Below, piece after piece: positions 61,702-61,973 of a DNA stretch of 64,000 bases. The stretch's first letter is position 1. The number at the start of each line of letters is the position of its first letter. The position numbers were made by a program, and so were the translations under genes. The notes beneath the pieces are model-generated. The model was not told the origin of the DNA and did no database searches. It saw nothing but the letters and a program-made list of their open reading frames with translations. Source of the stretch: Octopus vulgaris (lineage: Eukaryota); contig OX597831.1 of NCBI GenBank assembly GCA_951406725.2, positions 6,758,001-6,822,000 of the forward strand. Direction: 5' to 3'.

Positions 61702-61809
61702 CTGTTGCACAAGTATAATGGTAATAAAGCATTTTTTCCTTATCTTCATTGAGGTTCATGTAACAATCCATCATGTACTCTCGGGCAGCCATATAATCAC
61801 ACTTGGGCC
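61702..61809 (-). CDS. GNAQ: Gq-alpha penultimate exon, variant B (visual/photoreceptor-type), 108 nt
   Basis: tttcAG|GG CCC AAG...ACA G|GTATGT, phase 1-1. GPKCDYMAAREYMMDCYMNLNEDKEKMLYYHYTCAT resembles cephalopod retinal Gq as I recall it. Confidence 0.9.
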
Positions 61810-61865
61810 CTGAAATCAGATGAGTACAGATGAAGCGTGAAATGAGGAATATTAACAAGACATAC

Positions 61866-61973
61866 CTGTTGCACATGTGAAATGACTATATATAATTTTA
61901 TCAGGATCTGGGTTTAAATCAACAAACATTCGCAATATGAATTCTCTGGCAGCTTGTGCATCTTTCTTTGGAC
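61866..61973 (-). CDS. GNAQ: Gq-alpha penultimate exon, variant A (canonical type), 108 nt
   Basis: tttcAG|GT CCA AAG...ACA G|GTATGT, phase 1-1. [36 protein letters not shown] is the canonical Gq sequence. Not in the ORF track. Confidence 0.95.

Follow-up and report, generated by a model that had tools for sequence, protein, structure and literature searches.

Tandem general and visual-type penultimate exons in the Gq-alpha gene of Octopus vulgaris

The Gq-alpha gene of Octopus vulgaris carries two copies of its penultimate exon side by side, and this arrangement is a cephalopod example of the exon switch between visual and general Gq described in insects. We consider it probable that the two exons arose by tandem duplication and that they are likely spliced singly, the general Gq being encoded by exon A and the photoreceptor form likely by exon B. 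Exon A is the universal Gq form. The A and B isoforms are already in the databases for three Octopus species, being annotated in O. vulgaris, O. sinensis and O. bimaculoides.

The 3' end of the gene lies on the minus strand of the stretch of DNA analysed here (64,000 nucleotides, hereafter the window), with its features placed as in Table 1. The original prediction of two 108-nt, phase 1-1 exons 56 nt apart proved exact in coordinates, lengths, peptides and splice contexts. Both acceptors end in TGATTTCAG, both donors read CAG/GTATGT, and the exons agree at 62 of 108 bases and 18 of 36 residues; the pair thus consists of homologous copies of equal length and phase with intact splice sites, as tandem exons do. 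The best PDB match of each peptide is to Gq/G11 residues 297-332 (E 2.5e-18 for A, 8.5e-08 for B), values that exclude a chance resemblance to Gq for both. A six-frame motif scan of the window recovered exactly two copies of the exon end motif, one copy of the last exon 8.3 kb downstream, and no upstream Gq exon. The last exon terminates in the Gq C-terminal residues, and with the PDB matches this places the protein in the Gq class.

Table 1. Features at the 3' end of the Gq-alpha gene, in window positions
Feature	Position	Strand	Remark
Exon A, canonical penultimate exon	61866..61973	-	108 nt, residues 291-326; sixth of seven exons in ancestral numbering
Spacer intron, GT-AG, 56 nt	61810..61865	-	between exon A donor and exon B acceptor
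Exon B, divergent copy, squid-visual type	61702..61809	-	108 nt, phase 1-1
CTAAC branch-point consensus for exon A	61997..62001	-	adenine 25 nt before acceptor; motif only
Candidate conserved intronic element, 18 nt	61636..61653	-	48 nt past exon B donor
Shared last coding exon with stop codon	53350..53432	-	alpha5 helix and C-terminus, 27 residues

Two smaller features accompany these exons. About 100 nt before the last-exon acceptor lies a micro-exon-like stretch (53557-53529, minus strand), made up of a pyrimidine tract and AG, after which two GT sites resembling donors stand at 23 and 29 nt; use of either donor would shift the frame, and the stretch is absent from all stored proteins. Just past the exon B donor there is an A-rich run with AATAAA (61692-61670, minus strand), which is longer in a second species (organism B) and at which contigs break. 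B forms that read through into the intron occur in several records (P0143, P0005, P0006), and may arise by either internal priming or intronic polyadenylation.

Comparison of isoforms places both exons in a single gene. In six A/B pairs from octopus and squid (three compared with Octopus A, one from Doryteuthis and two of squid type), 16 to 18 of the 36 exon residues differ and none of the 317 outside it (0/290 before, 0/27 after). Since the pairs are identical outside the exon, they reflect one gene and one exon swap, and the expectation that a single gene yields both Gq forms was borne out. The exon B peptide is identical to that of O. vulgaris CAI9735768.1 (P0140) and the exon A peptide to that of CAI9735767.1; the latter is also identical across Octopus, Argonauta and squid records. 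The stored coleoid-type proteins number 22: 12 contain B alone and 9 contain A alone, three read through into the intron, and the sole protein with both exons is an Argonauta gene model named 'hypothetical protein'. Each copy is found alone in full-length products, A through contig junctions and B through squid cDNA-type and Logan proteins and the Octopus annotation.

Word-index searches for B-like exons, which work on cluster representatives and miss distant forms, returned 4 and 3 candidates, all coleoid-type, and a degenerate exon-B motif had no match in metagenome contigs. A literature search, with most subscription papers outside its reach, found no description of the cephalopod exon pair; a skin-phototransduction paper beyond that search may already report the two Doryteuthis forms.

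The coleoid proteins vary in other ways as well. Some carry and others lack one glutamate at the exon junction at residue 239-240 (354 versus 353 residues), independently of the A/B choice (P0007/P0004, P0011/P0009), likely through a tandem acceptor upstream of the window. The helical domain (residues 60-170) of both A and B forms is strongly diverged from that of other lophotrochozoans (P0138 and P0024 against P0073, P0086 and P0082); exon A, by contrast, is invariant. Within exon B, residues 305 and 309 (61768, 61756) alternate between D and N, each through a single A/G change. The window encodes D305-N309, O. sinensis and O. bimaculoides have N305-D309, and two squids have D at both places; charge is conserved among the Octopus species. 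A link of this alternation to A-to-I editing could be envisaged.

Transcript evidence comes from the assembled contigs of 4 runs among 20 listed, and such contigs show presence rather than absence and drop rare forms. In three of the four runs (X3, X6, X14) contigs join exon A to an upstream exon and, skipping exon B, to 53432; these contigs have loose ends, and the match to 53432 was read by eye. Exon B appears in unspliced contigs only, a result that in contigs says nothing against a spliced form, and one record (X5 record 10) spans both spacer ends unspliced. No A-B joint occurs among the contigs of the 4 runs, which drop rare forms and were read regardless of depth. The spacer is also 56 nt in organism B (X14 record 2), with one substitution at 61851.

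The assignment of exon B to vision draws on the squid proteins. Exon B is identical at 31 of 36 residues to squid AKI33347.1. The B form is found in Loligo P38412, in Euprymna ACB05682.1 and in AAM77353.2, the last deposited as 'visual iGq-alpha protein', in agreement with the predicted visual type. The squid B-type sequences were presumably obtained from retina, and the label 'visual' for exon B derives from that assumed origin and from one depositor's name. These presumably retinal squid Gq-alpha forms (AAM77353.2, P38412, ACB05682.1, AKI33347.1) share the B-type segment but have been known as cDNA or protein, whereas the window reveals an exon choice of the general Gq gene. It is unlikely, in our judgement, that exon B is instead a real alternative exon of neuronal or general sensory use, cloned from retina by chance. 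Such a role would suit the existence of an A-type octopus cDNA (O. vulgaris BAA93638.1) and the single plain name given to both Doryteuthis forms (AKI33347.1, AKI33348.1), but the squid protein named visual is B, the corresponding exon in flies is specific to the eye (PMC5765363), and the ortholog in a bug is head-specific (PMC4553527). We take BAA93638.1 to come from a photoreceptor study, and as it is of A type, the retina may hold both forms. The original prediction further offered exon B as a dermal marker, and nothing in the present data ties B to skin. Gq-alpha transcripts and protein occur in squid skin, and the available part of that paper does not name the isoform (PMC4564192).

It is highly improbable that exon B is decaying into a pseudo-exon in Octopus. 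Organism B differs from the window at four exon B positions, all residue-changing (counted by hand), and at none in exon A (Fisher p 0.12), and the Octopus species differ among themselves at 2-3 exon B residues, as a decaying copy might. However, the frame is open, the splice sites are intact, the identity to squid is as high as given above, and B isoforms are annotated in all three Octopus species.

The swap alters a defined part of the protein. The exon spans helix alpha4, the alpha4-beta6 loop and beta6 up to the TCAT nucleotide motif; that motif and the entire alpha5 C-terminus are unchanged between A and B. Relative to A, exon B has a net charge of -2 rather than 0 and six tyrosines rather than one, and it does without two prolines of the loop. 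The segment had been described as a receptor-contact surface, which is too narrow: in flies, an eye mutation in the corresponding exon was explained as a defect of the PLC interface (PMC5765363), and the title of a reference listed in PMC2954821 assigns the helix and loop to both receptor and effector interactions. In Drosophila, V303 is found specifically in the eye isoform; this helix 4 residue, encoded by exon 7A, was taken to belong to the PLC interface (PMC5765363). The divergent Drosophila copy (P0170) indeed has V at 303, where exon A has I and each of the 8 B copies compared has M. As exon B keeps TCAT and the whole alpha5 C-terminus, the swap would tune coupling to rhodopsin (the receptor) or to the visual PLC (the effector) and leave the G-protein class unchanged. 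A predicted structure of the B isoform (mean pLDDT 54.9) was too poor to use, with a low-confidence helix at 296-310.

How the two exons might be kept apart is suggested by the spacer between them. Double inclusion is in frame (2 x 108 nt), as the original prediction stated, and among the 22 stored coleoid-type proteins it is confined to the Argonauta model; RefSeq-style arthropod models often join both exons. The spacer offers three candidate branch adenines for exon B (61843, 61838 and 61831; 23, 28 and 35 nt from the A donor), predicted from the YTNAY motif only, at usual acceptor distances. All spacer adenines except the acceptor's own lie 13-50 nt from the A donor. A donor-to-branch distance below about 50 nt is hence forced by the 56-nt length of the intron, the branch point itself being a candidate, and a steric threshold of about 50 nt has been cited for vertebrates (PMC7969005). 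Because any B branch point would fall within 50 nt of the A donor, A-to-B joining is probably blocked, and on balance we favour a steric lock by the spacer. Exons 2 and 3 of alpha-tropomyosin are a known case of sterically enforced mutually exclusive exons. The sterically exclusive exons 4a and 4b of OGDH share the donor-to-branch distance below about 50 nt (PMC7969005), but there distant branch points were mapped in a longer intron, whereas in octopus the whole intron is 56 nt and the branch points are predicted. A message that retains the spacer meets an in-frame stop at 61854-61852, after four codons, so nonsense-mediated decay could still remove that product.

The spacer could also be a spliceable leftover of the duplication, with exclusion due instead to splicing factors that differ between tissues or to structure in the RNA, a reading that we hold to be possible and the less likely of the two. 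Short introns are spliced in the Gq genes of other animals: among 80 metagenome loci, 10 are genomic, nine of them with the same peptide as a Rotaria protein, and in these the intron before the matching exon measures 48-60 nt in 9/9 measurable cases and the intron after it 52-58 nt in 6/10. An intron of 56 nt is therefore not too short for every animal; the literature search found no intron-length figure for octopus. The strong donor and acceptor of the spacer, the conserved element past exon B and the Argonauta model with both exons also fit regulation by factors or structure. Against it, A-B isoforms are absent from 10/10 cluster members (four O. vulgaris models; O. sinensis, O. bimaculoides), and the spacer is held at 56 nt beside an 8.3-kb intron. 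As for structure, the RNA fold is no better than that of shuffled sequences (z +1.47) and no Dscam-type pairing of docking site and selector exceeds chance in 53000-64000. At three loci (L019, L048, L056), long contigs of 14-105 kb carry a full-length Gq-alpha frame free of introns, which may be a retrocopy or reflect intron loss in the lineage.

Along with the steric lock, an element in the intron behind exon B may contribute to the choice. The 18 nt at 61653-61636 translate to PAQLSP, the same six residues that follow exon B in the read-through proteins P0006 and P0016-P0020 (squid-type near-copies, counted as one source), and P0005 has a variant of this tail. The chance expectation of the match is 4e-05 when the first 20 residues are compared with the first 150 bases, a range chosen post hoc, and 0.078 for the whole tail against the whole intron. 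In octopus the element is out of frame with exon B and lies beyond stop codons, so its conservation is that of a nucleic acid. The comparison suggests that coleoids have conserved a nucleotide element behind exon B, likely one that regulates splicing. The best pairing partners of the element span 9-11 nt, several with G-U pairs, and are at chance level, as is a 9-nt partner match at 62954.

The closest parallel to the octopus pair is in insects, which splice three Gq exon pairs and whose phototransduction form is head-specific (PMC4553527). In Drosophila (4A/B, 7A/B and the last exon) and Anopheles (the D, G and H pairs), it is likewise this 36-codon, phase 1-1 exon that occurs twice, again as one near-invariant and one divergent copy, the divergent copy of the fly being eye-specific (PMC5765363, PMC4553527). 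Insects alternate at three exon pairs, one of them C-terminal, whereas the coleoid isoform pairs differ in one exon and the window holds a single last exon. The exon order is also reversed. In arthropods the divergent copy leads in 23/23 stored models that contain both copies in full, a filter that leaves out those in which a copy is partial, such as P0072 and P0101. The canonical copy leads in the window, in organism B and in Argonauta; exon B thus does not occupy the tandem position of the arthropod eye exon, 7A. Nor is B closer to either arthropod copy, with a mean identity of 17.2/36 to the divergent copies and 18.1-18.5 to the canonical ones. Outside the protostomes, vertebrate GNAO 7-8 and lancelet preGNAQ exon 5 also show local exon duplication with exclusive isoforms at interface regions (PMC5896119), but in other exons than the octopus pair; the strings 'mollus' and 'octopus' do not occur in the available text of that paper.

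We judge it probable that coleoids and arthropods duplicated this exon independently. A single duplication in the protostome ancestor, lost elsewhere and reordered in one lineage, seems rather unlikely to us. The case for it begins with K293 and Y307, and mostly M317, which B has in common with the arthropod visual copy, and an LG+G4 tree joins the two weakly (58/88). However, K293 and Y307 recur in vertebrate G14, which enters the same group with the same changes, a sign of long-branch pull, and we set that grouping aside. A mixture-model tree (50 rows; the first Ixodes copy, of 35 residues, was dropped) makes each set its own group and does not join B with the arthropod copies. An AU test rejects neither placement, with p-AU 0.106 when B is grouped with cephalopod A and 0.12 when it is grouped with the arthropod visual copy. 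This leaves room for a shared origin, but the opposite exon order and the lack of any closer likeness between B and the arthropod visual copy speak against one. So do the single exon copy in all ten genomic loci of other animals and the annelid, bivalve, chiton, brachiopod and nemertean proteins examined, which include no B-like exon and are all A-type; that set holds no Nautilus record.

The rest of the window contains mobile and viral remnants. Frames at 35937-37745 (plus strand) resemble a capsid gene of parvovirus/densovirus type that includes a phospholipase-A2-like domain and is interrupted by in-frame stops; a PF08398 match there (E 9.4e-07) is above the cut-off, and the region is likely an endogenous viral element. 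The adjoining 35533-35955 recurs closely at 38648-38959. Reverse-transcriptase remnants and LINE-like frames, the latter seen by eye, lie on the minus strand at 30031-31324, 37814-38272 and 40909-41322, with the reverse-transcriptase matches (PF13966, PF00078) both below the cut-off. A long (ATT/AAT)n low-complexity tract at 34492-35422 gives spurious poly-I, poly-N and poly-L frames.

Taken as a mechanism, default splicing would take exon A, which has the CTAAC branch site, and in photoreceptors a regulator, perhaps acting on the conserved element behind the B donor, would switch the choice to B. A message that kept the spacer would run into a stop four codons in. It is tempting to go further, and to propose that coleoids and arthropods each duplicated the same exon and rebuilt one of the copies for rhabdomeric vision, a convergence that would mark alpha4-beta6 as a tuning point for fast phototransduction. 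In coleoids the 36-residue swap would then be the entire difference between visual and general Gq, with the 56-nt spacer as its lock and the element as its switch. We hold this combined proposal tentatively, and rate it slightly short of even. The reversed exon order relative to arthropods makes the convergence testable.

In summary, the exon pair lets the long-studied visual G protein of squid and octopus be seen as one exon choice within the housekeeping Gq gene. The A and B forms look alike in gene-level counts, in single-cell data from 3' ends and to C-terminal antibodies, to the last because the final 27 residues are identical. An assay of the exon B junction would directly test for the retinal cascade in skin, arm and light-organ photoreception. 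Moreover, natural proteins only 16-18 residues apart offer a clean experiment on the role of alpha4-beta6 in coupling to rhodopsin and PLC. Three things give the exon pair its value: a probable convergence, a candidate switch in the intron, and a junction that could serve to mark extraocular photoreception.
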